Below, piece after piece: positions 1,521 through 26,267 of a DNA stretch of 64,000 nt (positions are counted from its first letter, which is position 1; each line of letters opens with the position of its first letter). This DNA comes from an uncultured bacterium (lineage in GTDB: Bacteria > Chlamydiota > Chlamydiia > Chlamydiales > VFKH01), in assembly GCA_964596685.1 (NCBI GenBank), contig CAZQVA010000001.1, forward strand, positions 64,881 to 128,880, read 5' to 3'. The notes beneath the pieces are model-generated. The model was not told the DNA's origin. It searched no databases and saw only the letters and a program-made list of their open reading frames with translations. The position numbers were made by a program, and so were the translations under genes.

Positions 1521-2597
1521 ATGCAAGTTTTTCTGCGCTCTATTATTCTTCTTACTTTCCTGTCTTTTCTCCTTTCAGGATGTACGACCAACTTACCCTG
1601 CGGTGTCTGCACCTATGGATTAGATGAGTTTGTCCTCGACTCTCATCGCTTACGCGAAAATCACTATGAACCTTTCACACAAACATGCCACCCCCACTGC
1701 ATGTCATTAGAAGAGATTGAAAGACGCCAAGACTGCATTTTAGAAGAGGACTCCCTCAAGATTTCCCTCTATTATAAAAAACGACCAGACATTAGCACCG
1801 CCATAGACACTTTTTCAGCAGCTGGCTTATACGAGGTCCAAGATGGCCTGGTTCACCTACCTGAACTGGCCCCTGTAGAAGTCGCCGGATTAACGATCGA
1901 GGAAGCTAGACAAAAGATCGAAACAGCTTACCGCACTAATTACAACACTGATGAATTGGAAGTATTCGCTACTTTAGAATTAGGGCATCGCCACCATGTC
2001 TATATTATCACGCGCTCTTCAATCATCTGCACCCCTGCGAAATGCGATATGCACCTTTTGGATATCTTATGTTTTGCAAAGATCAATTTTCTCGAGTATA
2101 ACCTGCAAACTTCCTATGTGCTGCGCAATCATGCGATTCTTCCCGTTAACATTTATTCCCTCCTCTACCATGCAGATCTCTCTCAAAACATCCCCATGAT
2201 GCCAGGCGACAAGGTGTTTATTGGGCTTACTTGCTTAGAGGATTCCGTTATTACTGTGCTCGGTGAAATCCGCTCTCCTGCAAACGTCCAGACAGCGGGC
2301 AAGCCTCTCTCTCTGCGCCAGGTACTCGGCTCAGTAGGAGGGATCCCCTTTACCGGAGACATGCGCTACATCCAGGTGATTCGCGGAGGGCTGCGTTGTC
2401 CAAAAATTTACGTCATTAACTGGAGAGAAACACTTCCTCTTTCTAACCAAAGTCTCTTATTATTCCCAGGCGATATGGTTTACGTTTCTGCAAAACCGAT
2501 CACAGAGTGGAACCGCTTTATTGACCAACTCCTTCCCTGCTTTGGCAATGTTATTTATGCTGCCCAAGGGGTCAATACCCTACAAGGATGCTTTTAA
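1521..2597 (+). CDS. Polysaccharide export outer-membrane lipoprotein (Wza / Poly_export + SLBB-like)
   Basis: The 358-aa ORF has a signal peptide ending in the lipobox LLSGC. PGDKVFI and LLLFPGDMVYVSAKP motifs are typical of Poly_export/SLBB domains. It is translationally coupled to the next ORF by a 10-nt overlap. Confidence 0.7.
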   Translation: MQVFLRSIILLTFLSFLLSGCTTNLPCGVCTYGLDEFVLDSHRLRENHYEPFTQTCHPHCMSLEEIERRQDCILEEDSLKISLYYKKRPDISTAIDTFSAAGLYEVQDGLVHLPELAPVEVAGLTIEEARQKIETAYRTNYNTDELEVFATLELGHRHHVYIITRSSIICTPAKCDMHLLDILCFAKINFLEYNLQTSYVLRNHAILPVNIYSLLYHADLSQNIPMMPGDKVFIGLTCLEDSVITVLGEIRSPANVQTAGKPLSLRQVLGSVGGIPFTGDMRYIQVIRGGLRCPKIYVINWRETLPLSNQSLLLFPGDMVYVSAKPITEWNRFIDQLLPCFGNVIYAAQGVNTLQGCF

Positions 2598-8262: not shown

Positions 8263-8333
8263 GCGCCTGTAGTTCAATGGTAGAACCGTAGCCTTCCAAG
8301 CTACTTGTGTCAGTTCGATTCTGATCAGGCGCT
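8263..8333 (+). tRNA. tRNA-Gly (anticodon UCC)
   Basis: Manual cloverleaf: acceptor GCGCCTG/CAGGCGC, D arm GTTC..GAAC, anticodon arm GTAGC-CTTCCAA-GCTAC, T arm with TTCGATT loop. Confidence 0.9.
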
Positions 8334-8414
8334 TAATTTTCATCTTAAACCAAGACCGAAATCACATGAAACAACGTGTGATGCCGTCGTCAAACCAAAA
8401 AAAAGGGACAAGGC

Positions 8415-9152
8415 TTGGCACAACTCACTATTGAAGAACTGCTTGAAGCAGGTGCGCATTTTGGACACCAAAAGCGCCGCTGGAATCCAAAGATGAAACG
8501 CTTCATCTTTGAAGAACGCAACGGTCTTTACATCATCGACCTGGCAAAAACTCTCCACCAAATTCGCGTGGCGACTGCTGCTCTTAAAGAAATTGTCGCT
8601 TCTCGTAAAACGATTTTGTTCGTAGGCACAAAAAAACAAGCTAAAAGCGTTGTGAAAGAATGCGCAGAAGCTTGTAATGAATTTTACGTTGCAGAACGCT
8701 GGTTGGGCGGAATGCTAACCAACCTGCAAACAATTCGTCAATCGATTAAAAAGCTTGAACGTGTTGAAAAACGTGTGTCAGATGGTGGCGACGGTTTAAC
8801 AAAGAAAGAACTCTCTCTGCTTATTAAAGACCAAGAAAAGCTGGATAAAAACCTCAGCGGTATTCGCTCCATGCGCAAGACGCCTGGCCTGGTTATCGTT
8901 GTCGATCCACATCGCGAGCATATCGCCGTTGCGGAAGCCAAGAAATTAGGCATCCCAGTGATGGCACTTGTCGACACAAACTGTGATCCAGATCCAATTG
9001 ACTATGTCATTCCTTGCAACGATGACGCGCTAAAAAGCGTTAAATTGATTCTACAGGCTTTGACATCAGCTATCATGGAACAAAAGAATGACATGCACAT
9101 GCATTCGATGAAAGATGATACAGAAGTTGCTCAGGAGCAAGAAGAAGCATGA
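8415..9152 (+). CDS. rpsB: 30S ribosomal protein S2
   Basis: 245 aa. The N-terminus LLEAGAHFGHQKRRWNPKM is a hallmark of S2. It has a TTG start and is followed by tsf as in the conserved rpsB-tsf operon. Confidence 0.97.
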   Translation: MAQLTIEELLEAGAHFGHQKRRWNPKMKRFIFEERNGLYIIDLAKTLHQIRVATAALKEIVASRKTILFVGTKKQAKSVVKECAEACNEFYVAERWLGGMLTNLQTIRQSIKKLERVEKRVSDGGDGLTKKELSLLIKDQEKLDKNLSGIRSMRKTPGLVIVVDPHREHIAVAEAKKLGIPVMALVDTNCDPDPIDYVIPCNDDALKSVKLILQALTSAIMEQKNDMHMHSMKDDTEVAQEQEEA

Positions 9153-9991
9153 TTACAGCAAAAATGATTCAAGAGCTTCGTTCGCGCACTGGAGTAGGCA
9201 TGGCAAAGTGCAAAGAAGCACTCGAAGCTACTAACGGCGACATGGAAGCTGCTATTTCTAACCTTCGTAAAGCCGGAATTGCCTCTGCAACAAAAAAAGA
9301 CAGCCGTGAGACAAGAGAAGGGCTCATCGCTTTTGCTGAAACTGAAAATGCCTTAGCTATTGTTGAAGTCAATGCGGAAACTGATTTTGTCGTAAAGAAT
9401 GATGTTTTCCAAAAATTCTTAGCCGAAGTGGCTAAAGAAGCTGCGGTCACTTGTCCTGCATCTGTGGAAGCGTTTTCAGCTCAAAAATACTCCCAAGATG
9501 CTTCACTGACGATTGATGAATACCGTGCATTAGCTATCCAGACTATTGGAGAAAACATCAAGATTCAGCGCATAGCTATTTTCAAGAAAAGCAATAATCT
9601 CTCCTTGGCTTGCTATTCCCATATGGGTGGCAAACTGGTAACCTTTGCGGAAATTGAAGGCAGCAATGAACTAACAGCCGTTGCAAAAGATGTAGCCATG
9701 CATATTGCAGCCGAAGCTCCCACTTATCTTGCCCCATCTGATGTACCAGAAGATGTCAAGAAACAAGAGGAAGAGATCGCTGCAGCGCAAGTAGTCGGCA
9801 AGCCTGATGCGATTCGCGCAAAGATCGTTGAAGGCAAGCTCAATGCCTTTTATGATAGTGTATGCTTGTTGCGCCAGAAGTTTATCAAAGATCCTTCGCT
9901 CTCCATTGAAGAGTATATCAAAAAGAGCGCATCTGGAAAACCTGTGACACTCAAACGTTTCTTGCGCTGGAAAGTAGGTGAAGGTGTTTAG
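9149..9991 (+). CDS. tsf: Elongation factor Ts
   Basis: 280 aa. The N-terminal UBA-like MIQELRSRTGVGMAKCKEALEATNGDMEAAI motif is present. A 4-nt ATGA overlap with rpsB indicates coupling. Confidence 0.97.
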   Translation: MITAKMIQELRSRTGVGMAKCKEALEATNGDMEAAISNLRKAGIASATKKDSRETREGLIAFAETENALAIVEVNAETDFVVKNDVFQKFLAEVAKEAAVTCPASVEAFSAQKYSQDASLTIDEYRALAIQTIGENIKIQRIAIFKKSNNLSLACYSHMGGKLVTFAEIEGSNELTAVAKDVAMHIAAEAPTYLAPSDVPEDVKKQEEEIAAAQVVGKPDAIRAKIVEGKLNAFYDSVCLLRQKFIKDPSLSIEEYIKKSASGKPVTLKRFLRWKVGEGV

Positions 9992-10009
9992 TCTTTCAGG
10001 ATATAACAC

Positions 10010-10708
10010 ATGACCTACCGCAGAGTCCTTTTAAAACTCTCTGGTGAAGCCCTTGCAGATGGTAAGGGCTTTTTTTCTGCCTCTAAATTAAAGAATATTC
10101 TTGATAGCTTGCATGGTCTCTGGAAACAGGGCATCGAAATCGGTATTGTGATTGGAGGCGGCAATCTATTTCGCGGAGCGCGTCAAGAAGGTTTGTCGAT
10201 TGATCGCGTGACAGCAGATCATATTGGCATGCTAGCTACCGCGATGAATGGATTAGCTTTAAAAGATGCGCTTCAGCAATACGGGTTACCTACTGAAGTT
10301 TTTAACTCCTTTCCACTTCCACTTGCTTCCTTTTATACTCCAAATATTGCTATTGAAGCCCTTTCGACAAAAAAAATCTGTATTTTTTCTGGCGGCACAG
10401 GAATCCCCTTCTTTTCTACCGATACCGCAGCTGTTATTCGCGCCTTGGAGACAAAATGTGATATTGTGTTGAAAGCCACAAAAGTCAATGGTGTCTTTGA
10501 CAAGGATCCCATAAAATATCCAGATGCTATTCACTATGATCGAATTCACTATTCTGAAGTGATCGAAAAAAAACTAGAAGTTCTCGATCTTGCAGCTTGT
10601 GCCTTATGCTGCGAGAATAACTTGCCAATCCTTGTATTCGATCTTTTTACTGAAAATTCTCTTCAACTTGCAGTCGAAAATCAAAAAATTGGCACACTAA
10701 TCCATTAG
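10010..10708 (+). CDS. pyrH: UMP kinase
   Basis: 232 aa. It shows the YRRVLLKLSGEAL and VIGGGNLFRG amino-acid-kinase motifs and sits in the conserved tsf-pyrH-frr order. Confidence 0.95.
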   Translation: MTYRRVLLKLSGEALADGKGFFSASKLKNILDSLHGLWKQGIEIGIVIGGGNLFRGARQEGLSIDRVTADHIGMLATAMNGLALKDALQQYGLPTEVFNSFPLPLASFYTPNIAIEALSTKKICIFSGGTGIPFFSTDTAAVIRALETKCDIVLKATKVNGVFDKDPIKYPDAIHYDRIHYSEVIEKKLEVLDLAACALCCENNLPILVFDLFTENSLQLAVENQKIGTLIH

Positions 10709-10807
10709 ACTTCTTTCCTTCAACACAGGTTATTCTGTAGAATGTCTCCTAATTGAACTTTAGATAAACAGAGATTGCAGATAGTTTTGCAAAAGGACCC
10801 AAATATC

Positions 10808-11356
10808 ATGACAATAGAACAGTCAAAAACAAAAATGGGTGCTGTTATTGAGCACCTAAAAACTGAACTTAAAAGCATACGCACAGGTCGTGCTAATCCA
10901 GGCTTCCTCGATGGCGTTCAGGTCGAGTCATTCGGTTCAATGGTGAAACTAAAAGCCGTTGGCAACGTAACATTAAGCGATCCACGCACGCTTTTAGTGA
11001 CACCTTTTGATCCTTCCATGGCGAGCACTATTGGAAAAGCAATAGAAAAAGCCAATTTAGGTGTACAAGTGGTTATAGATGGAAATGCAGTGCGCATAAA
11101 AGTCCCTTCCATGGATAGCGCTGTACGTCAAGAAATGGTTAAATTGTGTAAGCGCAAGGCTGAAGAGGCAAAAATTAGCATTCGCAATATCCGAAGAGAC
11201 GGCAATGAAGCTGCTAAAAAGGCCAAAGCCTCTGGAGAGCTCACTGAAGACCAACAAAAGCGCGCTGAAAAACAGATCCAAGAGCATACAGACAAGTTTT
11301 GTGCAGAAGTTGATACATTGTGTGCAGAAAAAGAGAAAGAGGTGCTTGCAGTTTAA
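10808..11356 (+). CDS. frr: Ribosome recycling factor
   Basis: RRF pattern (...LKSIRTGRANPGFLDGVQVE...IRNIRRDGNE...). I prefer the ATG at 10808 (182 aa, typical length) over the tracked TTG at 10775. Confidence 0.93.
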   Translation: MTIEQSKTKMGAVIEHLKTELKSIRTGRANPGFLDGVQVESFGSMVKLKAVGNVTLSDPRTLLVTPFDPSMASTIGKAIEKANLGVQVVIDGNAVRIKVPSMDSAVRQEMVKLCKRKAEEAKISIRNIRRDGNEAAKKAKASGELTEDQQKRAEKQIQEHTDKFCAEVDTLCAEKEKEVLAV

Positions 11357-14635: not shown

Positions 14636-14935
14636 GTGTGTAATTCAAAGTGTTAGGAAGGATGAAAAACTAGGGACTCATATTCTTTTAATATACCCAC
14701 TCCAGCCCCTATTAACTCTCATTCAGAACAATGTATAACAGCTTATATTCCCTCTGTGTGCTCTGTGGGCTCTGTGGCTCAAAACAATTAACATAAGTTT
14801 TAAATAAAAATATTTACCACAGAGCACACAGAGGGGGGAAAATAAGGATTTTTTAGCAGAAGGTTGTCTGGTGAATCCTTAAGAAAAGCTTCCATTCTAG
14901 CTCCAAACAGTTAACTAACACTTTGAATTACACCC
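14636..14935. mobile_element. MITE-like non-autonomous element (300 bp) with terminal inverted repeats, a 9-bp target-site duplication and an internal 19-bp hairpin
   Basis: There is a perfect 19-bp TIR: GTGTAATTCAAAGTGTTAG at 14638-14656 and its reverse complement at 14915-14933. Identical direct repeats CCAGTGAAG flank the element at 14627-14635 and 14936-14944. An internal perfect inverted repeat CCCTCTGTGTGCTCTGTGG (14750-14768) pairs with 14817-14835. The element contains no ORF. Confidence 0.75.
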
Positions 14936-14988
14936 CCAGTGAAGAAATGGGGAGACGAAAAAAAACCAAAGCTCGTATACTGTGAGCC

Positions 14989-15660
14989 ATGCTAACACTT
15001 CTTAAAGTATTTGGACCTTCACCTTTTGCTCCTCTTCAGATCCATATGGAGAAGGTTTTTAAGTGCGTACAAAAAGTTCAAGAACTATTTAAGGCTCTTA
15101 AACAACAGAATTGGTCTTCTCTCGAAAGCATTGCTGCAGAGATCAGTCATCTAGAACACGAAGCTGATCTAGCAAAGAACAATATCAGAAACCATCTGAC
15201 TAAGGGCCTATTTCTCTTAGTTGACCGCGCGGATCTTCTCCAAATCTTATCCCTACAAGATGATATCGCCGACAAGGCTGAAGATATCGGCGTTCTCCTT
15301 TCCTTGCGCCCACTTACCGTGCCAGCACTCTTTGAAAAAGAGTTTGATATTTTTTTAGCGAAAAACTGGGAATGTTTTGACAAAGCATACCGCGTGATGC
15401 AAGAGCTCAATGAACTTTTAGAAAGCTCATTTGGCGGTAAAGAAGCGGAAAAAGTCAAAGCGATGGTGGAAGGTGTCGCCTTCTCTGAACATGAGGCGGA
15501 CCTGATCCAAAAAGAGCTTTTGAAAAAATTATTCAATTGCGACGACCTGTCTCCTGCCGTTTTTAATCTATGGCTCAAGATTTTCCACGAAGTTAGCGCT
15601 CTTTCTAATCTTTCTGAAACCCTTGTGAATCGCATTCGCATGTTACTTGAAGTGAAGTAA
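14989..15660 (+). CDS. DUF47 / PhoU-like phosphate-transport regulator (PiT-associated)
   Basis: 223 aa, all-helical, with the repeated ..HEAD.. motif (ISHLEHEADL, FSEHEADL) typical of DUF47. It abuts the PiT transporter gene, a conserved pairing. Confidence 0.8.
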   Translation: MLTLLKVFGPSPFAPLQIHMEKVFKCVQKVQELFKALKQQNWSSLESIAAEISHLEHEADLAKNNIRNHLTKGLFLLVDRADLLQILSLQDDIADKAEDIGVLLSLRPLTVPALFEKEFDIFLAKNWECFDKAYRVMQELNELLESSFGGKEAEKVKAMVEGVAFSEHEADLIQKELLKKLFNCDDLSPAVFNLWLKIFHEVSALSNLSETLVNRIRMLLEVK

Positions 15661-16907
15661 TGGAACATCCCTTTCTGCTTCTAGCTTTAGCACTCATTTT
15701 GGGTGGTTATATGGCCTGGAGTATTGGCGCTAATGATGTTGCCAATGCCATGGGAACATCTGTTGGTTCTGGCGCCCTCACACTTAAACGTGCGTTAATT
15801 GTAGCTGCTGTCCTCGAATTTTGTGGCGCTTATTTTGTCGGTGGACATGTTTCAGAGACCATCGAAAGCGGGATTGTTAACACAAGCTTATATGCCGATC
15901 AACCTATGGTCCTTATTTGTGGCATGCTCTCTGCTCTTATTGCCTCAGGATTATGGTTGCAAACAGCTTCTTATTTTGGGTGGCCTGTCTCCACTACGCA
16001 CTCTATTATCGGCGCTGTGGTAGGGTTTGGCATTGTATCAAAGGGATTAAGTGCAATCTATTGGGGTGAATTCACAACCATTCTCTCTAGCTGGATCATT
16101 TCTCCCATGGTGGGAGGCATCGTTTCCTATTTCCTTTTTAATTTCGTCAGGCGCCAGATTTTTTACCATGAAGATGCGCTCTTGCGCACACGCAAGCTCT
16201 TTCCTTGGATCACCTTTTGCGTCTTTTTCCTTCTCGGCATGATTGTTTTTTATAAAGGAATTTCAGGGATAAATGTCACGTTCACCTTTCTGCAAGCCCT
16301 CTTTATTTGCATTGGTGTGGGGTTGATCTCTGCCGCTATCGCTTTTTTCCTTGCAAAAGACAAAGATGGCACTCCAAAAGGGCAACATGAGCAATTCATC
16401 GCCGTAGAAAAGATGTTCATCTCTTTACAGATTATTACAGCGTGCTGCATGGCTTTTGCGCATGGTGCCAATGACGTCGCCAATGCCATTGGACCTGTTT
16501 CCGCTGTTGTATCTCTTATTCAACATGGCATCGTTCTTCCCAACACCCCAGTACCCGGCTGGATTCTTGCTCTTGGTGGCTTAGGCATTGTAATTGGACT
16601 GGCCACTTGGGGATGGCGCGTCATTGAAACAATTGGCAAGAAGATCACCGAACTCACTCCGAGTCGTGGATTTTGTGCTGAATTTGGAGCCGCCATGACG
16701 ATTCTTTTTGCCTCAAAATTAGGGATGCCCATTTCAACAACGCATACCCTTGTTGGTTCCGTACTCGGCGTTGGTCTTGCAGGAGGAATTGGAGCCCTTA
16801 ACTTGCATATGATGCGCGATATTGTGCTCTCCTGGGTAGTCACTGTCCCCGCTGGCGCACTTTTTGCGATCATTTTCTATTGGATTCTCTCCTTTATTTT
16901 GATATAA
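15660..16907 (+). CDS. Inorganic phosphate transporter, PiT family
   Basis: 415-aa polytopic membrane protein with the duplicated PiT signature GANDVANA (GANDVANAMGTSVG and GANDVANAIGP). Confidence 0.92.
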   Translation: MEHPFLLLALALILGGYMAWSIGANDVANAMGTSVGSGALTLKRALIVAAVLEFCGAYFVGGHVSETIESGIVNTSLYADQPMVLICGMLSALIASGLWLQTASYFGWPVSTTHSIIGAVVGFGIVSKGLSAIYWGEFTTILSSWIISPMVGGIVSYFLFNFVRRQIFYHEDALLRTRKLFPWITFCVFFLLGMIVFYKGISGINVTFTFLQALFICIGVGLISAAIAFFLAKDKDGTPKGQHEQFIAVEKMFISLQIITACCMAFAHGANDVANAIGPVSAVVSLIQHGIVLPNTPVPGWILALGGLGIVIGLATWGWRVIETIGKKITELTPSRGFCAEFGAAMTILFASKLGMPISTTHTLVGSVLGVGLAGGIGALNLHMMRDIVLSWVVTVPAGALFAIIFYWILSFILI

Positions 16908-19527
16908 GCGCACGGCGCCAACTCTTATCGCCAGCAAGCAAATCAAGAGCCCATTCCTTTCCCCATAATACACATGCAGATTCATCAGGATACATTCTAA
17001 AAAGTGTCTCTAAAATAGCATACCCTATATCAACGGGTTGAATTCCCTTAGGATCCAAGATGTGTATTTCCACTCCGTAACAAATACAATTTTCGTGTTT
17101 AGGATGCTCTGCAACTCCCGCAATAGAGTGCGGAATAAAAGAAATGGGGGTAAAGTAAACTGACCCATTGATCTGATTTAAACGACTAGCTAAAGCTTCT
17201 GCATCGACCCAAGGAGCACCAAAGAACAGGAAGGGATGATCAGTACCCCGCCCTTCTGAATAATTTGTTCCTTCTAAAAAGGCCGTTATTGGGTAAGCAT
17301 AAATTTGGCGCAACGAGGCCAAATTAGGTGAAGGAGGAATGAAAGGGCGCGCCTTAAAATAAATCAAGGGATCAGCTTGGCAAGAGATGACTGTTAATTT
17401 CAAATTGGTGGGTGCAAATTGCTGCGCTAATTTCCCTATTGTTGAGCCATGGAGAAAAGGCGTAGGAAGCTTGCCAACAAATGAGTGACAATCCTCTTCT
17501 AAATGGGGTCCTTGTGCTTTCCAAAAACCTAAAATATTGGGTCTCTCAAGCACCAGCATTTCAACTCCATGTTCCGCACACGCCTCCATGGTAAGCTTTA
17601 AAGTACTTAAATAAGTGAAGCAACGCGCACCAATCTCTTGTAGATCAACAATAACGAGATCCACGCCTTGAAGCATCTCTTTAGTAGGCTTGCGTACTTT
17701 TCCATGAAGAGAATAGATGGGACAATTCCAAGCTGAGTTATTTGTCGAATCCACAGAAACAGCTGCACCATGCGAACCATTCAAACCATGCTCAGGAGAG
17801 AATGCAGCAACGAGTTGATCACTTGCCAACAAGTCGAGAATGAAATCTCCATTCATATCCGTGCTGCAGCGATGACACAGCACTGCAAAACGCTTATTCT
17901 GCAGATATTTCTCTTTTTCGCGCATCAGTAGATCCAATCCACATAACTGCAAAGGGGCTGCAAGTAATTCTGCCGCACGATTAAGCAGGGGCTGATTATG
18001 CGATCCTAAATAAAGCACACGCGCTTTAGGGAGCAGTTTATCCTCCATAGGATGCCCTAGTGAAACAACAACAACGCGCTCTTGTATATCTTCCAAGGAT
18101 TTTAGCCATTGCGCTTGGATGCGATTCCAAGATGCATCCGCATAAAAAAATGTCGTAACAATGATCGTCTCATCTGTAGTACGTGCTACAAAATCATGAA
18201 TTTGTTTAAGGCTAGATTCATCCATAGGATTGCATATACACTCCTGGGTGATCGTCGCACCATTTTCTTTTAGCTTGCCAGCCAAATAACTGCCCGACTC
18301 TTTAATAAACCATGGCTCAGGGCGGATTTTTCGTAAATCTACAGTGACTAAACAACTTGTCTTATTCGCCGCCGAAACGCACCCACAACCCTCTACACAT
18401 TCCTGTGCAATATATGCAGCACAGGCCTTTTCATCGACCGGTAAAAGAGATGTCTGCGCCTTTAACGTATTTTTACACCGTTCAATCTCTTTTAAGCACC
18501 TTTGGTGTGTTTTTAAAGAATCACCTTGACAATTCAACTCATCCATCAATTGCTTTTGCTCTTTCCATGGGATGGAAGAAATAATCAAATGATAACCTGC
18601 ATCTAAGGCTTCCTGTAGCGCCACCAGTCTAGATGTGTCGGCAGATGCAGCTTTCATTGAAAAATCATCTGTGATGAGTAATGCATCCGGATTCTTCTTG
18701 CGCACTAGCTCTACAATTTTTTTACAGCGTGTCAGAGGGATGGGACCAAATGGGGCAAAGGTTGCATGTGTCACCATGACCATTGCAAAAGTCTCTTTTA
18801 AGACGCCCAAAAAGGGAGCCATCTGCTCTTGAAGCAATTCATCATTAAGGTGAATCTGAACGGATTCTAAATGTGTATCTGCGGCTCCTAAACCTAATCC
18901 AGGAAAATGTTTAATGACAGGCGCGACAGCACCTTGACTCAACCCGCGACAAAAAGCTATGCCATATCTTTCTATCTCAGGCGCATGAGCTGCAAAACAA
19001 CGAGTTGCCAACACGCAGGAACCAAACATGTCCAAACAGGGAGCAAAATCAACATTAATTCCAACTTCAAACATTTGTCGTGCAGCTAAAAGTGCCGCAT
19101 CAAAGGTGATGCTCGGAGAAGCCTTTGCCAATAGCCAGGGGCTTGGAATGGTAAAAAATCCCCCCTCTTCATTCACGCGCTCTACAATTCCGCCTTCCCA
19201 ATCGATCGTAATAAAAGGCGGCTGCAGGCCCTGTTCTTTTGCTTGTTCTTGAAAAAAAGAGGTTAATGCAGCGACTGCGACGCGATTTTTACAATGCCCC
19301 GCAAACAAGATGATTCCACCCGGTTGAAGTTCTCGATACCATGTGGCAAGCTCCTTTCTGTCCTCAGTACACGGTGGGACTAAAATAAAGCGCTGTCCAA
19401 TATTTGTATCTGCTAATAACTCATTAATCGCCATAATACAAAACAATAACCAGAAGGAAAACCGCATCAAAAAAGCCTCAAGAAATGACGAGAGCAAAAG
19501 ATTAGCATGGACTTTCATTTCTACCAA
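16894..19527 (-). CDS. Fusion protein: two-domain GH3 beta-N-acetylglucosaminidase (NagZ/YbbD-like) plus C-terminal DUF1343 (NamZ/YbbC-like exo-beta-N-acetylmuramidase)
   Basis: 877 aa. The N-terminal half carries the GH3 motifs IKHFPGLGLGAADTH and LITDDFSM. The C-terminal third has the DUF1343 pattern (SPEHGLNGS..., LHGKVRKPTKEMLQGVDLVIVDLQEIGARCFTYLSTL). A hydrophobic leader MRFSFWLLFCIMAINELLA suggests export, so the true start may be the internal Met near 19467. Confidence 0.8.
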   Translation of the reverse strand: MVEMKVHANLLLSSFLEAFLMRFSFWLLFCIMAINELLADTNIGQRFILVPPCTEDRKELATWYRELQPGGIILFAGHCKNRVAVAALTSFFQEQAKEQGLQPPFITIDWEGGIVERVNEEGGFFTIPSPWLLAKASPSITFDAALLAARQMFEVGINVDFAPCLDMFGSCVLATRCFAAHAPEIERYGIAFCRGLSQGAVAPVIKHFPGLGLGAADTHLESVQIHLNDELLQEQMAPFLGVLKETFAMVMVTHATFAPFGPIPLTRCKKIVELVRKKNPDALLITDDFSMKAASADTSRLVALQEALDAGYHLIISSIPWKEQKQLMDELNCQGDSLKTHQRCLKEIERCKNTLKAQTSLLPVDEKACAAYIAQECVEGCGCVSAANKTSCLVTVDLRKIRPEPWFIKESGSYLAGKLKENGATITQECICNPMDESSLKQIHDFVARTTDETIIVTTFFYADASWNRIQAQWLKSLEDIQERVVVVSLGHPMEDKLLPKARVLYLGSHNQPLLNRAAELLAAPLQLCGLDLLMREKEKYLQNKRFAVLCHRCSTDMNGDFILDLLASDQLVAAFSPEHGLNGSHGAAVSVDSTNNSAWNCPIYSLHGKVRKPTKEMLQGVDLVIVDLQEIGARCFTYLSTLKLTMEACAEHGVEMLVLERPNILGFWKAQGPHLEEDCHSFVGKLPTPFLHGSTIGKLAQQFAPTNLKLTVISCQADPLIYFKARPFIPPSPNLASLRQIYAYPITAFLEGTNYSEGRGTDHPFLFFGAPWVDAEALASRLNQINGSVYFTPISFIPHSIAGVAEHPKHENCICYGVEIHILDPKGIQPVDIGYAILETLFRMYPDESACVLWGKEWALDLLAGDKSWRRALISK

Positions 19528-19544
19528 CTCTTAAGCTGTACATA

Positions 19545-20783
19545 ATGTTGAAAATAGTCTCTCTACTTCTATTGTGCTGCTCCTATTATACAGGTCTTTT
19601 TTCACTCCAACTCGGTATTGAAAGACTGACTGAAGAGCCATTTTGGACAAAAAAACTCGAAAACAAACGCATCGGGATTCTTACCCACCAAGCAGCTATC
19701 GATCATCAAGGTGTTCACACGATTGAGCGGCTGCAACAAGCTGCTAAAAAACAACACTTTACCATTGTGGCACTTTTTGGCCCTGAACATGGGCTTGATG
19801 GTTCAAAATTTGCCGCGCGCGATGTTCAACATTCAAAAACAAATGATGGCATTCCTGTTTTTTCTCTCCACGGAACTACGCGCCGCCCCACTAAAGAGAT
19901 GCTGCAAAACATTGATGTTCTTATATGTGACTTGCAGGACATTGGTTGTCGCTCTTATACTTATCTAACAACCCTTTGTTACGTTATTGAAGAGTGCGCA
20001 AAAAATAAAGTTAAAGTCATTGTAACAGATCGCCCCAATCCGATGGGCGGCCTCGTCATTGATGGTCCCATTCTCGAAGAAAAATATCAATCCTTTGTAG
20101 GATACTTGTCAATCCCTTATGTCCATGGTATGACATTGGGTGAATTGGCCCGTTTTGTCAATGAAAACAACCAAGTGCATTGTCAATTAGAAGTTGTTCC
20201 TATGATAGGGTGGACAAGATCCATGCAATGGTCGCAGACAGGCCTTTTATGGATGCCCACTAGCCCACAAATCCCAGAAGCAGACACCCCTTTTTATTAT
20301 GCAACCACAGGCGTCTTTGGAGAAATGAAATGGGTCAATATTGGAGTGGGCTATACATTGCCCTTCAAAACTGTAGCAGCACCTTGGATCGATGCATCAC
20401 TGCTAGCTGGAAAACTCAATGAAAAAAAATTTCCCGGAGTATGCTTTACTGAAATTCATTATACTCCCTTTTTTGGATCGCTAAAGGACCAAGTGTGCCA
20501 TGGCATCAAAATTCAAATCACAGACCCTCAAAAGTATATGCCAGTGGAGACGGGGTTTCTAATTTTGGGGATTCTAAAAACTCTCTATCCTGCCAAATGG
20601 CAAGAAGCCATCAGCAACCCTAAACTTAGCAAGGTCTTTGCGCAATATTGGGGAACACATGATGTCCTCAATATTTTGACAAAAGAAAAATATGCGATCT
20701 TTCCTCTCAAGGGAATATGCATGAAGGCGCGCCAAAGTTTTATACAAAAGCGCGCCAAATATTTACTTCCAGAATATTCCTAA
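19545..20783 (+). CDS. DUF1343 family protein (NamZ-like exo-beta-N-acetylmuramidase), secreted
   Basis: 412 aa with signal peptide MLKIVSLLLLCCSYYTGLFS. DUF1343 pattern: RIGILTHQAAID..., FGPEHGLDGS, LHGTTRRPTKEMLQNIDVLICDLQDIGCRSYTYLTTL. It is divergent from, and paralogous to, the C-terminal domain of the neighbouring fusion. Confidence 0.8.
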   Translation: MLKIVSLLLLCCSYYTGLFSLQLGIERLTEEPFWTKKLENKRIGILTHQAAIDHQGVHTIERLQQAAKKQHFTIVALFGPEHGLDGSKFAARDVQHSKTNDGIPVFSLHGTTRRPTKEMLQNIDVLICDLQDIGCRSYTYLTTLCYVIEECAKNKVKVIVTDRPNPMGGLVIDGPILEEKYQSFVGYLSIPYVHGMTLGELARFVNENNQVHCQLEVVPMIGWTRSMQWSQTGLLWMPTSPQIPEADTPFYYATTGVFGEMKWVNIGVGYTLPFKTVAAPWIDASLLAGKLNEKKFPGVCFTEIHYTPFFGSLKDQVCHGIKIQITDPQKYMPVETGFLILGILKTLYPAKWQEAISNPKLSKVFAQYWGTHDVLNILTKEKYAIFPLKGICMKARQSFIQKRAKYLLPEYS

Positions 20784-22618
20784 GAAGCTCTCAATGCCAG
20801 TTTTTCTAAAACTTTTGTCGATTGAGAAATGAAATTAGAAAGGGTTGCAGGATCTACCTCTTGCTGAGACATGAGGGCCAGTTGGTATACCTGTAACAAC
20901 ATATCTTTAGCTAAGTCCCCATCTTTCTCAGAAAGAGTCTTAATAGCCTGAACTAACTTGCTATTCGTATTGACGATAAAAGTGTGCTTAGGACGAAACA
21001 TATCATCCATACGCATTTCTGGCTGATGCAAACGCATATAGTCGCGCATACGGCGCTCCTGCTCATCGATCATCACAAACCCAGCGACATCATCACTAGC
21101 CAAACTCTTTGCTTCAACCTCAAGTTTTGGAAGCTGTAGCGCGCCCTTTACAAAGCTTGCAAGACGACTAGCTTCAGTTTTCCCCTCTTGATCAAGAATG
21201 ACTTGTTCCTTTGTTGAATCAATGATGAGATCTTCTACAGCTCCATCGATGCGCTGAAATTTAATAGCAGGTTGCTGCTTATTTTCTAGAAAACTCATCA
21301 AAGCTGCATCGATCAAAGAATCCGTGAGAAGCACTTCAATGCCTTTTTTGCGGTACATCTCGATGAATTGCCCCTGCTGCTTAAGATCGTTAGCATAAAA
21401 AACTTTATCTTTATACTCTTCTCGATGTTTGGCAATATATTCATCTAAAGTAACCCACTCACCTTCGGAGTTCTTCCATCCTAAAATCTCTTTGATGCGC
21501 TCAAAGAACTTTTCATCTTGCAACACTCCAATCTTCACAATGACTTCCATGCTGGGCCATTGCTCAATAAAATTTTCGCGCTCAGACTTAAACATGCCAG
21601 TCAGTTTCTCTGCTACTTTTTTCGAAATATGCACGCCTAATTGACGCACCGTGCGATCCATCTGCAAATAACTTCTAGAAACATTCAAGGGGATATCTGG
21701 ACTGTCAATGGCACCTTGTAAAAGCATTAAATAGTCAGGGATCAATTCCTGACAATTATCTGAAACAAATACGCGGTTGCAAAATAGCTTGATGTGGTTC
21801 TTTTTATAATCTACTCCAGACTTAGCTCTAGGAAAATAAAGAATTCCTTTGCAGTGGAAGGGGTAATCGACATTGATATGCAACCAGAACAGTGGATCTT
21901 CTTGCATCGGATAAAGTTGACGATAAAATTCCAAATACTCTTTATCCGTGCATTCTTGAGGGTTTTTCAACCATAGAGGATCTGTATGGTTGAGATGTTC
22001 ACCATTCAAATAGATTGGATAGGGCAAAAACGAGCAGTAATGAAGAATGATCTTACGGATATGCGCAACATCAAGACACTCATCGTGATCGCGTCCAATA
22101 TGTAAAACAATATCCGTGCCGCGCGTTTGGCGTGTTCCCTTTCCAATCTCATATTGACTAGAGCCATCACAGGACCAAAAAACAGGCTCACTACTATCTG
22201 TAAATGATAATGTGTCGATAGTTACACGATCTGCTACCATGTAGGCAGAATAGAATCCCAACCCAAAGTGACCAATAATCTGATCCTTTTCGTCTTGAGA
22301 TTGGTACTTGCTCATAAATTCTTCAGCACCCGAAAAAGCGATTTGAGCAATGTAATTCTCTACTTCGCTCGCCGTCATTCCGATACCCGTATCACTAAAT
22401 TGGAGCGTACGCGCCTCTTTATCAATTTTGATATCGATGCGCCACTCAGAACTATCCGTTTTCACAAGATCTTGATTGCTAAGGATAGTGAGTTTTCTAA
22501 TCGCATCACATGCATTTGAAACTAATTCACGAACAAATATATCCTTTTCAGAGTAAAGCCATTTTTTAATAATAGGTAAAATGTTTTCACTATGAATGCG
22601 CAATGTACCCGTATTCAT
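20780..22618 (-). CDS. htpG: Molecular chaperone HtpG (Hsp90)
   Basis: 612 aa. It has the GHKL ATPase N-terminus (IFVRELVSNACDA..., GHFGLGFYSAYMVAD) and the Hsp90 middle and C-terminal domains. Confidence 0.95.
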   Translation of the reverse strand: MNTGTLRIHSENILPIIKKWLYSEKDIFVRELVSNACDAIRKLTILSNQDLVKTDSSEWRIDIKIDKEARTLQFSDTGIGMTASEVENYIAQIAFSGAEEFMSKYQSQDEKDQIIGHFGLGFYSAYMVADRVTIDTLSFTDSSEPVFWSCDGSSQYEIGKGTRQTRGTDIVLHIGRDHDECLDVAHIRKIILHYCSFLPYPIYLNGEHLNHTDPLWLKNPQECTDKEYLEFYRQLYPMQEDPLFWLHINVDYPFHCKGILYFPRAKSGVDYKKNHIKLFCNRVFVSDNCQELIPDYLMLLQGAIDSPDIPLNVSRSYLQMDRTVRQLGVHISKKVAEKLTGMFKSERENFIEQWPSMEVIVKIGVLQDEKFFERIKEILGWKNSEGEWVTLDEYIAKHREEYKDKVFYANDLKQQGQFIEMYRKKGIEVLLTDSLIDAALMSFLENKQQPAIKFQRIDGAVEDLIIDSTKEQVILDQEGKTEASRLASFVKGALQLPKLEVEAKSLASDDVAGFVMIDEQERRMRDYMRLHQPEMRMDDMFRPKHTFIVNTNSKLVQAIKTLSEKDGDLAKDMLLQVYQLALMSQQEVDPATLSNFISQSTKVLEKLALRAS

Positions 22619-22642
22619 ACAATCCTTTTTTTTTATTCAAAT

Positions 22643-24040
22643 TCAAAATTGCAAAAGATGGTCAATGTCAATAAGTCCCCCTTTCTGCAATAAAATGCAA
22701 AGAATTCCTAAAGGGACAATATACCGAATGAGAAACAGCCATGGACGGAACCATCGCACTGCTTTAGAACCAGAAAGAAATTCTTCTCTCAAAAGGCGTT
22801 TATCAACTTGCCATCCGGCAAAAAGAGCTATTAGCATTCCACAGACAGGCAAAAGCCAGTTATTAGAAATATAGTCAACAGTACTGAAAAAATCTTTCCC
22901 ATAAAGTGCTGACCACGAACCGAACATAGCCCCCGATCCCGATAATGCACTAGGGATACCAAAGAGAAATGCCGCTAAACCGATTAACAGAACTGCTTTT
23001 TTACGCGACCAACCAAATTGCTCGATCCATGTTGCGGCCAACATTTCCAAAATGGAAATTGCAGAAGTAAGTGCAGCAAATGTGACCAACAAAAAGAAGA
23101 GCACTGAGATCAACAATGTTGCAGGTAATTTTGCAAAAAGCACCGGCAAGGTTTTAAAGAGCAAACCCGGACCTTCAGAAGGGGTAAACCCAAAGGTAAA
23201 AATAATAGGGAATATCATTAAAGCAGCCATGAGTGCGACAGTAATATCCATCAGCGCCACTGTTGCAACTGTTTTAGGAATATTATCTGTTTTGCGCATA
23301 TAGCTACCATACGTCAACATGATGCCCAAACCAACACTGAGGGTAAAGAAGGCGAGTCCCAATGCCTCTAAAATCGCTGAAGGCTTGAAAGTTTCAAAAT
23401 CTGGATAGAGAACAAATCGTACAGCCTCACCGAAGCCATCCAAAGTCATTGAATAACAGAGCAAACCAAGCAAGATGACCAAAAATGTGGGCATCAAGAT
23501 TTTAGACCAATATTCGATCCCTTTTCTTACCCCAGCATAAACCACTCCAACTGTCATGATCATGAAGATACAGTGCCAGAATACATTGATTTCTCCCGAC
23601 GCAAACAATGTATCGAAGAGACCACTAATCTCTGCAGGCGTACGATTAATGGTGAATTGATTTAGAGACATCAAAGTATAGTTTACAGCCCAACCAGCTA
23701 CCACGCTATAGTAGGATAAGATAAGAAAGTTGATAAGAACACACAACCATCCCACCATTTTCCAATTCTTTTCAGGTTTGGAAAGCTCCTGAAATGCACC
23801 AACCGCGCTTTTCGCCGCCATTCTTCCGAGCAGTAATTCAGCAACAAAAATCGGAGCCCCCACAATGAAGGTAAAGAACAGATATGCAAAGACAAATAGA
23901 CCCCCACCATTCATCCCTGTAACATAAGGGAATTTCCACAGACTACCTAGGCCAATTGCAGAACCGGCAGTTGCCATGATGAATCCTAAACGCGAACCCC
24001 AATGTTCACGCGTCTTTTTATAAGATATATCTTGCGTCAT
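22643..24040 (-). CDS. Sodium-dependent transporter, neurotransmitter:sodium symporter (SNF/NSS) family
   Basis: 465 aa with about 12 TM spans and the N-terminal NSS signature WGSRLGFIMATAGSAIGLGSLWKFPY. Confidence 0.9.
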   Translation of the reverse strand: MTQDISYKKTREHWGSRLGFIMATAGSAIGLGSLWKFPYVTGMNGGGLFVFAYLFFTFIVGAPIFVAELLLGRMAAKSAVGAFQELSKPEKNWKMVGWLCVLINFLILSYYSVVAGWAVNYTLMSLNQFTINRTPAEISGLFDTLFASGEINVFWHCIFMIMTVGVVYAGVRKGIEYWSKILMPTFLVILLGLLCYSMTLDGFGEAVRFVLYPDFETFKPSAILEALGLAFFTLSVGLGIMLTYGSYMRKTDNIPKTVATVALMDITVALMAALMIFPIIFTFGFTPSEGPGLLFKTLPVLFAKLPATLLISVLFFLLVTFAALTSAISILEMLAATWIEQFGWSRKKAVLLIGLAAFLFGIPSALSGSGAMFGSWSALYGKDFFSTVDYISNNWLLPVCGMLIALFAGWQVDKRLLREEFLSGSKAVRWFRPWLFLIRYIVPLGILCILLQKGGLIDIDHLLQF

Positions 24041-25035
24041 AGATGCTCTTCTTTCGTCATGCGCTGCATTAACTCCCTTACCGCTTGTAGTGGAGTCTTA
24101 TCAGCATAAATAATATCATAAATCGCTTGTGTAATAGGCAGAGGCACATTGTAGTGTTGACCCATTTGCAAAGCGGAAACACAAGTGTAGGCCCCCTCAA
24201 CAGCTGCATGGATCTTTTCTTTTGCTGTGGCAGCACTATCACCATGCGCTAACAAATTTCCAAAGCGATAGTTGCGACTTAGCGTGGATAGACATGTTGC
24301 GCAAAGATCTCCCATTCCTGCTAGGCCATTCAATGTGTCGATACGACACCCTTTGACCACTCCGAGCTTACGCATTTCATGTAAACCGCGTGTCATAATG
24401 GCAGCCTTGGTGTTCATTCCAAAGCCAAGACCATCAGAAAGACCACAGGCTATTGCAACGATGTTTTTCATGGCTCCTCCAAATAGCACTCCGTGCACAT
24501 CACTATTGGGATAGACGCGGAATGTCGCTGTTGAAAAAGCATTTTGTATTAACATCATCACGGCTGGATCATACGCAGCACTCACCACTGAGGTGGGCAC
24601 ATTGCGCAAAACTTCTTCTGCAAGGCTTGGGCCACTTAACACCCCTATCAAGGGCTTTACATCGGATCCCAAAACATTTAAAATGACTTCATCCAAAAGC
24701 AATTCGCTTTTTTGTTCAATACCCTTTGAAGTAATTGCCACGGGAACGTGTAAGCCACCTAGTGTTTTAATTTGCTCAAATACAGGACGAATTCCAGCTG
24801 ATGTGACTGATTCAACAATCAAGTCACTCCCCTGCAACACTTCCTTAAGTTCACTCGTAAAACGCAAATTATCGGGTAAAATAAGATCATGTAATTTAGG
24901 ATGACGGCGCGTCATCTGCAAGAGTTCTGCTTTTTCTGGATGAGCACTCCATACCAGGCAGGAAATTCCCTTATTTGCCAACAATTGCGCAAGGCATACG
25001 CCCCAAGTACCACTTCCTAAAAATCCAACTTTCAT
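24037..25035 (-). CDS. gpsA: NAD(P)H-dependent glycerol-3-phosphate dehydrogenase
   Basis: 332 aa with Rossmann motif KVGFLGSGTWG and conserved GpsA blocks (NVPTSVV, GGAMKNIVAIACG, TRGLHEM). Confidence 0.93.
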   Translation of the reverse strand: MKVGFLGSGTWGVCLAQLLANKGISCLVWSAHPEKAELLQMTRRHPKLHDLILPDNLRFTSELKEVLQGSDLIVESVTSAGIRPVFEQIKTLGGLHVPVAITSKGIEQKSELLLDEVILNVLGSDVKPLIGVLSGPSLAEEVLRNVPTSVVSAAYDPAVMMLIQNAFSTATFRVYPNSDVHGVLFGGAMKNIVAIACGLSDGLGFGMNTKAAIMTRGLHEMRKLGVVKGCRIDTLNGLAGMGDLCATCLSTLSRNYRFGNLLAHGDSAATAKEKIHAAVEGAYTCVSALQMGQHYNVPLPITQAIYDIIYADKTPLQAVRELMQRMTKEEHL

Positions 25036-25049
25036 AGACTATACAACCT

Positions 25050-26267
25050 TTAAGCTTTATCACAAGCACTCTGTATGGAATGCAGGCTGTTTTTGTCCTT
25101 AAGCGGTACAAATTCACGCGTTCTCTCAACGCACAAAATACCCGTTTTATTGCTCACTATAAATCCATCGAATATGTAGTGTTCAAATTTCCAACGATAG
25201 CACTTGCCACTTTGCTGCTTTAATTCATCCGATTCGACAAAAACATCCCAATATTTTACCTCTTTTTTTTGGTAATGTAATGGAAAATGTGATGCTTCTA
25301 AGCAATCGATCCAAGAAAGAGAGAAAAAATACATCCCTGTATTGCCTAGGAATGGTTGATTCCTTATTGCATGATCTACTTCGCTATATTCAATGATTTG
25401 AATTTTTCCCTGATTTTCCACCAGGAGTCCCATTTTTTCGTCTAAAGTGACTCGCTCGACCCCTTTAATTGAAACATCATTCCCCGAAGTGACATGAAAG
25501 GCAGCAAAAGCAGTGTCAAATGGGTCAGCAAATGGATTGTCAATTGCAATCCATGAAAGATACTCTACCCCTTCTCTTTTCCACTGTTGATAAAATGCTG
25601 CTTTTTTTAAGAGAAGTGGCGCATATCCATTTCCATTGGGTCCCATAGCGACATGTCCAGGCGCATCTAGACATAAGTTTTCCTCGTAGGAGAGATAAGG
25701 ATAATCCTGTTGCATCAAAAAAAAGAGATGCTCAGCTGATAGTCCAAAGTTTTGATGTTCCTGAAAATAAGCACGGACCTGTAAATCATTCGCTGATGAT
25801 GTCATGATCGCTACATGGAGCGGCCTTTTAACTTTTTCACTCATCGCTACAATTTTTTTTGCAACTATTTCAAAGAGCGTTCTTCCTTGAAACGGTTCTA
25901 AAGGAATGCATCCCTTGGGTATCCCATCAATCCCCAAACGGGAACCTACTCCACCTGCAACGATTAATAAAGCAACTTTCCCTTGAGAAATGGGATCGCA
26001 ACCTTCCTGTTGGCAATCCTGCTTCATTACGTGTAAAGGCACTTTTAAGTCATCATGCGAAACAGCTAATGGCTCATGCAGTTGCCTCCGCTCTTCATAC
26101 ATCCGCTTAAAATCTAGCGCATGAATCTGCTCGATAAAATTTGTCTTCTGAGGCGTTGTCCATAAATTCCACCCCTTCAATAGATGCTGTTGGTCATGCT
26201 GAATCAGTATATTCAGCATCTCCTTATAGAGAGGTTCGTCTATAGGAGATATACTGCTCAATGGCAT
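25050..26267 (-). CDS. UDP-sugar pyrophosphorylase of the eukaryotic UDPGP/UAP type (UDP-N-acetylhexosamine pyrophosphorylase-like)
   Basis: 405 aa. The nucleotide-binding loop LLIVAGGVGSRLGIDGIPKG matches the UAP/UDPGP L-x2-G-G-x-G-[ST]-R-L-G...PKG signature. The 5' end overlaps the upstream GT9 gene by 44 nt, so a later start is possible. Confidence 0.75.
   Translation of the reverse strand: MPLSSISPIDEPLYKEMLNILIQHDQQHLLKGWNLWTTPQKTNFIEQIHALDFKRMYEERRQLHEPLAVSHDDLKVPLHVMKQDCQQEGCDPISQGKVALLIVAGGVGSRLGIDGIPKGCIPLEPFQGRTLFEIVAKKIVAMSEKVKRPLHVAIMTSSANDLQVRAYFQEHQNFGLSAEHLFFLMQQDYPYLSYEENLCLDAPGHVAMGPNGNGYAPLLLKKAAFYQQWKREGVEYLSWIAIDNPFADPFDTAFAAFHVTSGNDVSIKGVERVTLDEKMGLLVENQGKIQIIEYSEVDHAIRNQPFLGNTGMYFFSLSWIDCLEASHFPLHYQKKEVKYWDVFVESDELKQQSGKCYRWKFEHYIFDGFIVSNKTGILCVERTREFVPLKDKNSLHSIQSACDKA

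Follow-up and report, generated by a model that had tools for sequence, protein, structure and literature searches.

We analysed a 64,000-nucleotide (nt) stretch of an uncultured bacterium of the chlamydial lineage VFKH01 (assembly GCA_964596685.1, contig CAZQVA010000001.1, positions 64,881 to 128,880), referred to below as the window. At positions 16894 to 20783 two genes diverge, one for a protein that joins a NagZ-type enzyme of glycoside hydrolase family 3 (GH3) to a GH171 enzyme (NamZ, also DUF1343), the other for a stand-alone NamZ. We think it probable that these are two exported, exo-acting peptidoglycan glycosidases, that the fusion is bifunctional, that its gene likely derives from Dependentiae and that the substrate is most likely the organism's own amidase-treated peptidoglycan.

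The initial annotation, made from the letters and an open reading frame (ORF) list, had reported an 877-amino-acid (aa) ORF at 16894..19527 on the minus strand and a 412-aa ORF at 19545..20783 on the plus strand, in agreement with that list. While the maximal fusion ORF opens at TTG 19527, we favour ATG 19467, 20 codons further on. It is the start of the database gene call P0001 (857 aa, an identical protein), agrees with homolog N-termini and has a GAGG Shine-Dalgarno sequence 8 nt upstream; it leaves a 20-residue hydrophobic leader before the conserved GQRFIL, as in the homologs. With this start the divergent genes lie 77 nt apart, and the 17-nt gap first reported holds only between the maximal ORFs. 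Residues are numbered either on the 877-aa ORF or on P0001, so that, for example, D287 of the former is D267 of the latter. The main features of the locus are as follows.

16894..19467, minus strand: gene of the NagZ-NamZ fusion, favoured start ATG 19467, stop codon 16894-16896, product of 857 aa; three domains by Pfam
19468..19544, no strand: divergent intergenic region of 77 nt, from the sequence, presumably with both promoters
19545..20783, plus strand: stand-alone NamZ, 412 aa, by Pfam, PDB matches and named relatives a resident chlamydial NamZ of the BfNamZ1/TfNamZ1-like subgroup
19408..19467, minus strand: putative Sec-type signal peptide of the fusion, MRFSFWLLFCIMAINELLAD, aa 21-40 (877-numbering), a hydrophobic leader (KD10 2.75) with a predicted N-terminal helix 2-18
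19545..19604, plus strand: putative Sec-type signal peptide of the stand-alone NamZ, MLKIVSLLLLCCSYYTGLFS, a hydrophobic leader kept across chlamydial NamZ homologs

Both proteins look exported and would be periplasmic. Leaders that open with MKK- or MR- followed by a hydrophobic stretch are found in most members of both families, including most of the 37 aligned fusions (P0001 numbering is used for that alignment). These calls, which agree with the signal-peptide-like leaders first noted on both proteins, come from a hydrophobicity heuristic rather than a trained predictor. The sequence LLLLCC in the stand-alone NamZ raised the question of a lipoprotein; in our own judgement this is unlikely, the residue before the Cys not being lipobox-like. 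A promoter and terminator scan of 16700..21000 was uninformative, with fewer matches than shuffled sequence and no sigma-70 promoter above chance.

Architecture and integrity of the fusion protein

Pfam finds three domains in the 877-aa ORF: Glyco_hydro_3 (PF00933; aa 55-332, 1.8e-35, 123 bits against a cut-off of 27), NamZ_N (aa 548-739, 4.6e-53) and NamZ_C (aa 744-875, 6.4e-33), all far above gathering scores. DUF1343 in the C-terminal third is therefore supported by profile search and, with both active sites conserved, the NagZ-NamZ fusion proposed initially is genuine. The features of the GH3 half are the following.

18532..19365, minus strand: GH3 N-terminal (beta/alpha)8 catalytic domain, NagZ type (Pfam PF00933)
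17947..18531, minus strand: GH3 C-terminal alpha/beta sandwich domain, from an AlphaFold2 model compared with two-domain NagZ structures; too divergent for Pfam GH3_C
18871..18912, minus strand: KHFPGLGLGAADTH motif, aa 206-219, with the putative substrate-binding Lys-His and Asp-His acid/base dyad (K206, H207, D217 and H219, 877-numbering)
18655..18672, minus strand: TDDFSM, aa 286-291, with the putative catalytic nucleophile D287 (877-numbering; D267 of P0001)

Sequence matches of this half in the PDB are all GH3 beta-N-acetylglucosaminidases. Both motifs named at the outset, KHFPGLG..ADTH and TDDFSM, are present. The K, H, F, P, G, D and H of KHFPGLGLGAADTH are invariant across the 37 fusions, and its spacing (K, +11 D, +13 H) equals that of RmNag K179/D190/H192 and RmNag3 K216/D227/H229. 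The motif reportedly takes the form K-H-(F/I)-P-G-x-G-x4-D-(S/T)-H (said to come from Litzinger et al. 2010), its Asp-His dyad replacing the Glu of GH3 glucosidases. T266, D267 and M271 around the nucleophile are likewise invariant, and the position of D287 agrees with RmNag D268 and YbbD D318, as judged by spacing and Foldseek superposition rather than by residue-level structural alignment. The GH3 columns invariant in all 37 sequences include D89, R156, K186-H187-F-P-G190, D197, H199, M231 and D267, which by sequence would correspond to the Lys-His that binds substrate in NagZ, to its Asp-His acid/base dyad and to its nucleophilic Asp. The GH3 module is thus predicted to hydrolyse terminal beta-linked N-acetylglucosamine (GlcNAc).

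The 37-sequence alignment was used to build an AlphaFold2 model of the fusion, which has high confidence along its whole length (pLDDT 91.3, pTM 0.91). In Foldseek searches of the PDB, model residues 1 to ~525 matched 6k5j with a TM score of 0.77 over 525 of 526 residues, 3sql with 0.73 and Bacillus subtilis YbbD (3bmx/4gyj) with 0.61-0.63. Because the model superposes on two-domain NagZ enzymes, residues 333-527 are assigned from the model to the GH3 C-terminal sandwich domain. The two-domain GH3 of the initial annotation is upheld by this superposition, not by Pfam. In line with this assignment, stand-alone TM6 GH3 proteins (~525 aa) align over 56-59% of the fusion query.

The NamZ half carries these features.

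16897..17946, minus strand: GH171 NamZ module, with NamZ_N at 17311..17886 and NamZ_C at 16903..17298 (Pfam)
17785..17796, minus strand: PEHG with the putative catalytic Glu, E579 (877-numbering), equivalent to BsNamZ Glu92
17242..17259, minus strand: SEGRGT, GRG-type active site; Arg760 (877-numbering) is the putative equivalent of BsNamZ Arg279, and 4jja has SLGRGT
17932..17961, minus strand: fusion junction AAPLQLCGLD, where NamZ starts at the equivalent of the mature N-terminus of the stand-alone NamZ

Matches to this module in the PDB are strong by sequence (4k05, 3.8e-53, 184 bits; 4jja, 3.3e-43, 151 bits) and by structure, the Rossmann-like two-domain fold superposing on 4k05 with a TM score of 0.79 (root-mean-square deviation 2.5 A, 365 columns) and on 4jja with 0.72. 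P558, E559, H560 and G561 are invariant in the 37 fusions, as are E738, G739, R740, G741 and T742. In BsNamZ, Glu92 at the end of beta-strand 2 is the proposed catalytic residue, and the conserved Arg279 of the C-terminal auxiliary domain points into the cleft (PMC8054146). From these features the fused module is predicted to release N-acetylmuramic acid (MurNAc) at non-reducing termini of peptide-free substrates. At the junction the fusion reads AAP-LQLCGLD, against a signal peptide (...FS) followed by LQLGIERL in the stand-alone NamZ, and a BLASTP alignment of the stand-alone NamZ with the fused module begins at residue 21 of the former. In effect, the sequences suggest, a whole NagZ stands in place of the NamZ signal peptide, with no linker.

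Since NagZ and NamZ are encoded by separate genes elsewhere, for example in B. subtilis, a false join by frameshift or chimeric assembly was conceivable, and the initial annotation had itself raised the frameshift; a decaying pseudogene was considered as well. The Logan assemblies of SRR14271331 and of SRR14271335, independent of each other, both contain an identical 857-aa ORF next to the same 412-aa gene. A second strain, found in ERR7015365 (contig L012), a run unrelated to these, is colinear with window positions 14874..25467, has no indels and keeps the same ORF length; the 77-nt intergenic region is unchanged in it. The fusion genes of the two strains differ by 34 synonymous and 8 non-synonymous codon changes, with dN/dS values of 0.069 (NagZ half) and 0.060 (NamZ half), showing that the gene is under purifying selection. 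Moreover, 36 homologs align continuously across the junction, and the model is confident over its whole length. Frameshift and chimeric assembly are excluded on these grounds, and we give an artefact or pseudogene a negligible chance.

The two strains also differ unevenly along the compared region. Of the 75 nucleotide differences in 10.6 kb, 42 fall in the 2.57-kb fusion gene (34 of them synonymous), which makes 16.3 per kb, whereas the genes on either side have 1.4-7.1 per kb (binomial p = 4e-9). The fusion-gene alleles are much older than their surroundings and may have been imported by recombination.

Two NamZ subgroups at one locus

The neighbouring gene was correctly recognised as a stand-alone DUF1343 protein: Pfam finds NamZ_N (43-246, 9.5e-78) and NamZ_C (251-408, 1.2e-32), both far above cut-offs. 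Its best PDB match is 4k05 (BfNamZ1; 1.7e-89, 303 bits), ahead of 4jja (BfNamZ2; 4.3e-42, 148 bits), and its best named relatives, at 48-54% identity, are proteins of Chlamydiales, Parachlamydia and Parachlamydiales metagenome-assembled genomes (MAGs). The initial annotation had called it a divergent paralog. That description does not hold: with ~50% identity to many MAG proteins it is, by sequence, the standard NamZ of environmental Chlamydiae and an ordinary chlamydial gene, and it is the fused gene, not this one, that appears foreign. Its active-site features are given below.

19782..19793, plus strand: PEHG with the putative catalytic Glu81, from the sequence of the stand-alone NamZ
20340..20357, plus strand: IGVGYT, GVG-type active site, with Val268 where the fused domain has Arg; 4k05 has SIGVGYT

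PEHG is present in 123 of 123 domains of the stand-alone-NamZ family. Aligned pairwise, the two NamZ domains of the locus read NIGVGYTLPF and SEGRGTDHPF; they share 37% identity and fall in separate clades of the tree. A recent tandem duplication as their source was rejected on both counts. The two domains are, as judged from sequence and tree, old paralogs of different GH171 subgroups, and therefore probably not redundant.

We took a census of the motif in 306 NamZ-containing proteins, in which the fusions were sampled with a GRG-type query. G[VIL]G occurs in 121 of the 123 chlamydial-type homologs. GRG occurs in every fusion with a locatable motif, including the NamZ-GH3, GH3-PF00144-NamZ, tandem NamZ-NamZ and SSF-NamZ proteins, and the tree cleanly separates the GRG from the G[VI]G type. 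TfNamZ1 groups with BfNamZ1 (4k05) and is an exo-disaccharidase releasing GlcNAc-MurNAc, while TfNamZ2 and BsNamZ release MurNAc only; the active site of BsNamZ is closer to BF0379 (4jja) than to BF0371 (4k05). We put forward the testable hypothesis that the GRG type comprises monosaccharide exo-muramidases that need prior NagZ action, and the G[VI]G type disaccharide releasers. A need of GRG-type NamZ for NagZ would explain why this type is the one fused to NagZ, and the difference between GRGT and G[VI]GYT could be tested as what determines whether GH171 enzymes release mono- or disaccharides.

The stand-alone NamZ of other Chlamydiae lies in varied contexts, with no GH3 neighbour in the loci examined. 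In Parachlamydia sp. AcF125 (contig L009, 994..9251) it is downstream of genes for a MurA-like protein (PF00275), ClpP, DapF, a PgeF/YfiH-like protein (PF02578) and LPG_synthase_C, and a type III secretion export-apparatus cluster follows it directly.

Distribution and origin of the fusion gene

A word-indexed search returned ~36 clusters (90% identity) with the GH3-NamZ architecture, at 38-47% identity to the window protein, and an exhaustive search of 50%-identity representatives returned ~10. All fusion clusters that bear an organism name belong to Candidatus Babeliales or Dependentiae, so that the family is otherwise one of Dependentiae/Babeliales where named. A search of genome contigs with the fusion protein matched only a stand-alone NamZ of Sumerlaeota. 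Our literature search found no characterised enzyme with the GH3-NamZ architecture and no discussion of the fusion. Uncharacterised as first stated, the architecture is nevertheless already common in public data: members of the ~36 clusters are labelled YbbC/GH3 or NamZ-domain proteins by JGI and NCBI, and NamZ is fused in several further layouts.

Judging by its place in the sequence tree, the fusion gene probably came from Dependentiae (Babeliales) by horizontal transfer. In neighbour-joining bootstraps, rooted on the independent fusion P0043, P0001 falls inside the Dependentiae fusion family in 89 of 100 replicates and is sister to P0026/P0028 in 74 of 100. P0028, one of the closest relatives, lies on a contig (L008) that is syntenic with the contig of P0003 and whose iPGM has named best matches that are nearly all Dependentiae/Babeliales. 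At nine other fusion loci examined, no second NamZ was found within 6-10 kb. Base composition is uninformative on foreign origin: the GC content of the fusion gene (0.436; GC3 0.366) is within the range of other window genes, and composition cannot test the transfer because Dependentiae loci and the window have similar GC. On the simplest view, namZ has long been part of chlamydial genomes, and the NagZ-NamZ gene of a Dependentiae donor entered next to it, in the interval bounded by the convergent genes PiT and htpG. If so, this would be another case of gene sharing between unrelated protist-associated parasites.

The contig with P0028 (162,832 bp) comes from the Logan assembly of SRR14271331. 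The Dependentiae carrier was therefore in the same sequencing run as the window chlamydia, and the putative donor and recipient lineages co-occur.

The recipient side rests on the window itself, which by its gene content is from a chlamydial genome, as the initial annotation had it, because of its PBP2-rpsB region, its ytg operon, its short hemC type and the relatives of the stand-alone NamZ.

5148..8123, minus strand, and 8263..11356, plus strand: PBP2/MrdA-type transpeptidase of 991 aa, its PBP2 profile match split by large insertions, next to a tRNA gene and rpsB-tsf-pyrH-frr
35742..39832, minus strand: ytgA-ytgB-ytgC/R-ytgD operon, with a ZnuA-like ytgA, an ABC ATPase (ytgB) and a 431-aa ytgC-ytgR that joins a permease to a DtxR/MntR-type repressor

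The oversized PBP2 beside rpsB-tsf-pyrH-frr resembles the pbp2...rpsB gene order of Chlamydia trachomatis, without the intervening ompA, and the permease-DtxR fusion is of the kind known from Chlamydia. Genes at 78..5182 (plus strand) encode a Wzy_C/O-antigen-ligase-like protein of 445 aa, a 358-aa polysaccharide export protein resembling Wza and a protein of 864 aa without a family match, possibly a surface-polysaccharide export cluster. At a distance of 4 kb from the locus, a gene next to gpsA and that for lipopolysaccharide heptosyltransferase II encodes a 405-aa sugar-1-phosphate uridylyltransferase of the UDPGP family (PF01704; 25050..26267, minus strand). Its product could be UDP-GlcNAc or a different UDP-sugar; a link to the salvage of released amino sugars is speculative.

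NamZ has been joined to other partners as well. The architectures among the sampled proteins were NamZ alone (111), GH3-NamZ (54), PF00144-NamZ (10), NamZ-GH3 (3) and GH3-PF00144-NamZ (2). Of the 72 metagenomic loci examined for stand-alone proteins related to the fused module, a PF00144-like domain was found in 35 (fused in 12, a separate ORF in 23) and GH3 in none; the 64-kb window has no PF00144-like ORF. We take B. subtilis AmiE to have the PF00144 beta-lactamase fold; if this is right, the triple fusions order three activities as in the B. subtilis reaction (NagZ, amidase, NamZ). The recurring GH3/PF00144/NamZ fusions are strong genomic evidence for one pathway well beyond Bacillus.

Three further layouts were seen. 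P0253 (941 aa, metagenomic) has the order NamZ-GH3(-C domain), and its NamZ domain nests in the Dependentiae GH3-NamZ family beside a Babeliales member; from its sequence it looks like a circular permutation of the GH3-NamZ fusion, possibly via tandem duplication. P0281 (913 aa) is a sodium:solute symporter (PF00474) fused to NamZ, and P0254 (990 aa) and P0255 (1544 aa) each carry two NamZ domains in tandem, along with Ig-like or S-layer homology domains.

Proposed function and comparison with known systems

In B. subtilis, BsNagZ, AmiE and NamZ act one after another on the non-reducing ends of peptidoglycan (PMC8054146), a precedent that the initial annotation cited for NagZ and NamZ, and NamZ enzymes require peptide-free MurNAc. 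An amidase must therefore act too; none was seen among the annotated ORFs of the window. In Chlamydia the amidase step is that of AmiA, which yields denuded strands. We propose that an amidase would first strip peptides from the glycan strands, that the GH3 module would then remove the non-reducing terminal GlcNAc and that the fused GRGT-type NamZ would remove the exposed terminal MurNAc, if peptide-free. By alternating, the two activities would shorten denuded strands, or MurNAc/GlcNAc oligosaccharides, to monosaccharides. By analogy with BfNamZ1/TfNamZ1, the stand-alone GVGYT-type NamZ may release GlcNAc-MurNAc disaccharides, which the NagZ module could split. In this scheme the fusion gene would have come from a Dependentiae (Babeliales) donor sharing protist hosts and have landed beside the resident namZ. 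Reviews describe chlamydial genomes as lacking obvious lytic transglycosylases, making exo-hydrolases plausible for glycan disposal. The two functions are linked at the locus, where a single ORF carries both nagZ and namZ and another namZ lies at a distance of 77 nt, and further support is provided by the recurrent independent fusion or adjacency of GRG-type NamZ with partners acting upstream in the pathway.

Several observations weigh against this reading. The GH3 half scores 114.5 bits (5.6e-33) with the NCBIfam NagZ equivalog model NF003740, under its curated cut-off of 207, and Pfam finds no GH3 C-terminal domain in residues 333-527; on both grounds the GH3 half is classed, by sequence, as a divergent NagZ relative and not as an equivalog by NF003740. 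The Arg of GRGT was matched to Arg279 by numbering offset (+11, from Glu92/Glu81) rather than by alignment. Because the query that found the fusions was itself of the GRG type, their GRG-only pattern is biased. In the study of NamZ1 and NamZ2, specificity is held not to be predictable from sequence alone. The direction of transfer is not secure, because a tree of the NamZ domain only puts P0001 basal within the family and the phylogeny is by neighbour-joining only. Finally, amidase, MurQ, MurP, AmpG and AmgK/MurU are absent among the window ORFs of at least 150 aa scanned with Pfam and NCBIfam.

The sub-threshold NagZ score would also fit a substrate other than peptidoglycan, such as chitin-like or host glycans or lipo-oligosaccharide, or a GH3 module that is a glycoside phosphorylase. 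Some His-dyad GH3 enzymes have been reported as phosphorylases, and NamZ homologs transferred to ciliates have been discussed in connection with chitin-like substrates. However, every GH171 enzyme characterised is specific for MurNAc in which the lactyl carboxylate is free (PMC8054146 among the sources), the NagZ-specific dyad motif and pocket residues are invariant, and the recurrent fusions to PF00144 (AmiE-like) domains point to muropeptide processing. We consider this alternative quite improbable.

The wall that is degraded could also be foreign, the exported enzymes harvesting GlcNAc and MurNAc from wall debris in the phagosomal/vacuolar system of a protist. The T. forsythia NamZ enzymes have been proposed to process exogenous peptidoglycan in the periplasm and so salvage MurNAc. 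Members of the fusion family occur only in lineages of reduced metabolism that are associated with protists (Dependentiae and this chlamydia), some Dependentiae such as Babela are without most peptidoglycan synthesis genes, and the UDPGP-family uridylyltransferase 4 kb away would also fit such a role. Against this, the PBP2 transpeptidase encoded in the window shows that the organism makes peptidoglycan itself, and no MurNAc or disaccharide transporter or kinase is found nearby. A polymeric substrate would have to cross the outer membrane to reach periplasmic enzymes, and in Parachlamydia the stand-alone NamZ adjoins peptidoglycan synthesis and editing genes. Salvage of foreign peptidoglycan is thus the weaker alternative, and in our view an unlikely one, to turnover of the organism's own wall.

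A more ambitious version of own-wall turnover can be drawn, which we offer tentatively and think rather doubtful as a whole. The fusion would be a dedicated exo-depolymerase of denuded glycan strands, its rigidly packed sites alternating on one strand, and would have spread horizontally between bacteria that infect protists, from Dependentiae to this chlamydia. Along with the GVG-type NamZ of environmental Chlamydiae it would form the glycan-degrading arm of wall turnover without classical lytic transglycosylases. As a corollary, one GH171 position (Arg in GRGT, Val/Ile in G[VI]GYT) would decide between release of MurNAc and of GlcNAc-MurNAc. Any kinetic coupling or processivity of the two modules, as had been suggested initially, is pure inference.

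How Chlamydiae dispose of the glycan backbone of the septal ring or sacculus is partly understood, SpoIID and AmiA being the known players. A conserved GH171 enzyme of environmental Chlamydiae, predicted to be exported, and a probably acquired, bifunctional NagZ-NamZ are concrete, readily assayable candidates for this step, and the fusion family represents a natural case of two exo-glycosidases that act in sequence being joined in a single chain. Of interest beyond the initial annotation are the probable transfer between phyla and the logic by which one NamZ subgroup is the fused one; current understanding is not overturned by them.

The same two secreted enzyme families are found in B. subtilis, where NagZ (YbbD, 3bmx/4gyj) and NamZ (YbbC) are adjacent in the murQ-murR-murP-amiE-nagZ-namZ operon and act sequentially from the non-reducing end; for the window protein the likeness is known from sequence. 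Its GH3 module has the two-domain NagZ fold and Asp-His dyad of YbbD, and its NamZ module has the PEHG Glu of BsNamZ and, by numbering offset, a putative site of the Arg279 type. In contrast to B. subtilis, the window pair is a single polypeptide without a linker, and amiE, murQ, murP and murR are not nearby. The GH3 C-terminal domain is too divergent for Pfam, identity to YbbD is ~18-19% in structural alignment, and the window organism is a diderm in which the enzymes would act in the periplasm.

The presence of two NamZ types recalls Bacteroides fragilis and Tannerella forsythia, whose NamZ1 and NamZ2 are likewise two GH171 paralogs of different subgroups per genome, all with signal peptides. 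BfNamZ1 (4k05) shares GVGYT with the stand-alone NamZ, and BfNamZ2 (4jja) shares GRGT with the fused domain. Both Bacteroidetes enzymes are stand-alone and lie in MurNAc-utilisation clusters with AmpG, MurT, MurK and MurQ, whereas one of the window pair is fused to NagZ and such genes are not adjacent; the fused domain also forms its own clade and is not a close relative of BfNamZ2.

Among metagenomic proteins, GH3-GH3_C-NamZ (P0260), NamZ-GH3 (P0253, P0278, P0359) and PF00144-NamZ (P0300 and others) similarly join a GRG-type NamZ to enzymes of the same pathway, and GH3-GH3_C-PF00144-NamZ (P0263, P0044), NamZ-NamZ (P0254, P0255) and the SSF transporter-NamZ protein (P0281) are other multidomain forms. 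These are independent fusions with other orders or partners, whose NamZ domains lie elsewhere in the tree, save for P0253. The fusions in Candidatus Dependentiae/Babeliales MAGs (e.g. MBM3893550.1, 'DUF1343 / NamZ domain-containing protein') have the same architecture as the window protein, with 850-920 aa, a signal peptide, the invariant residues and 38-47% identity. What sets the window copy apart from them is its place in a chlamydial genome, beside a resident chlamydial NamZ.

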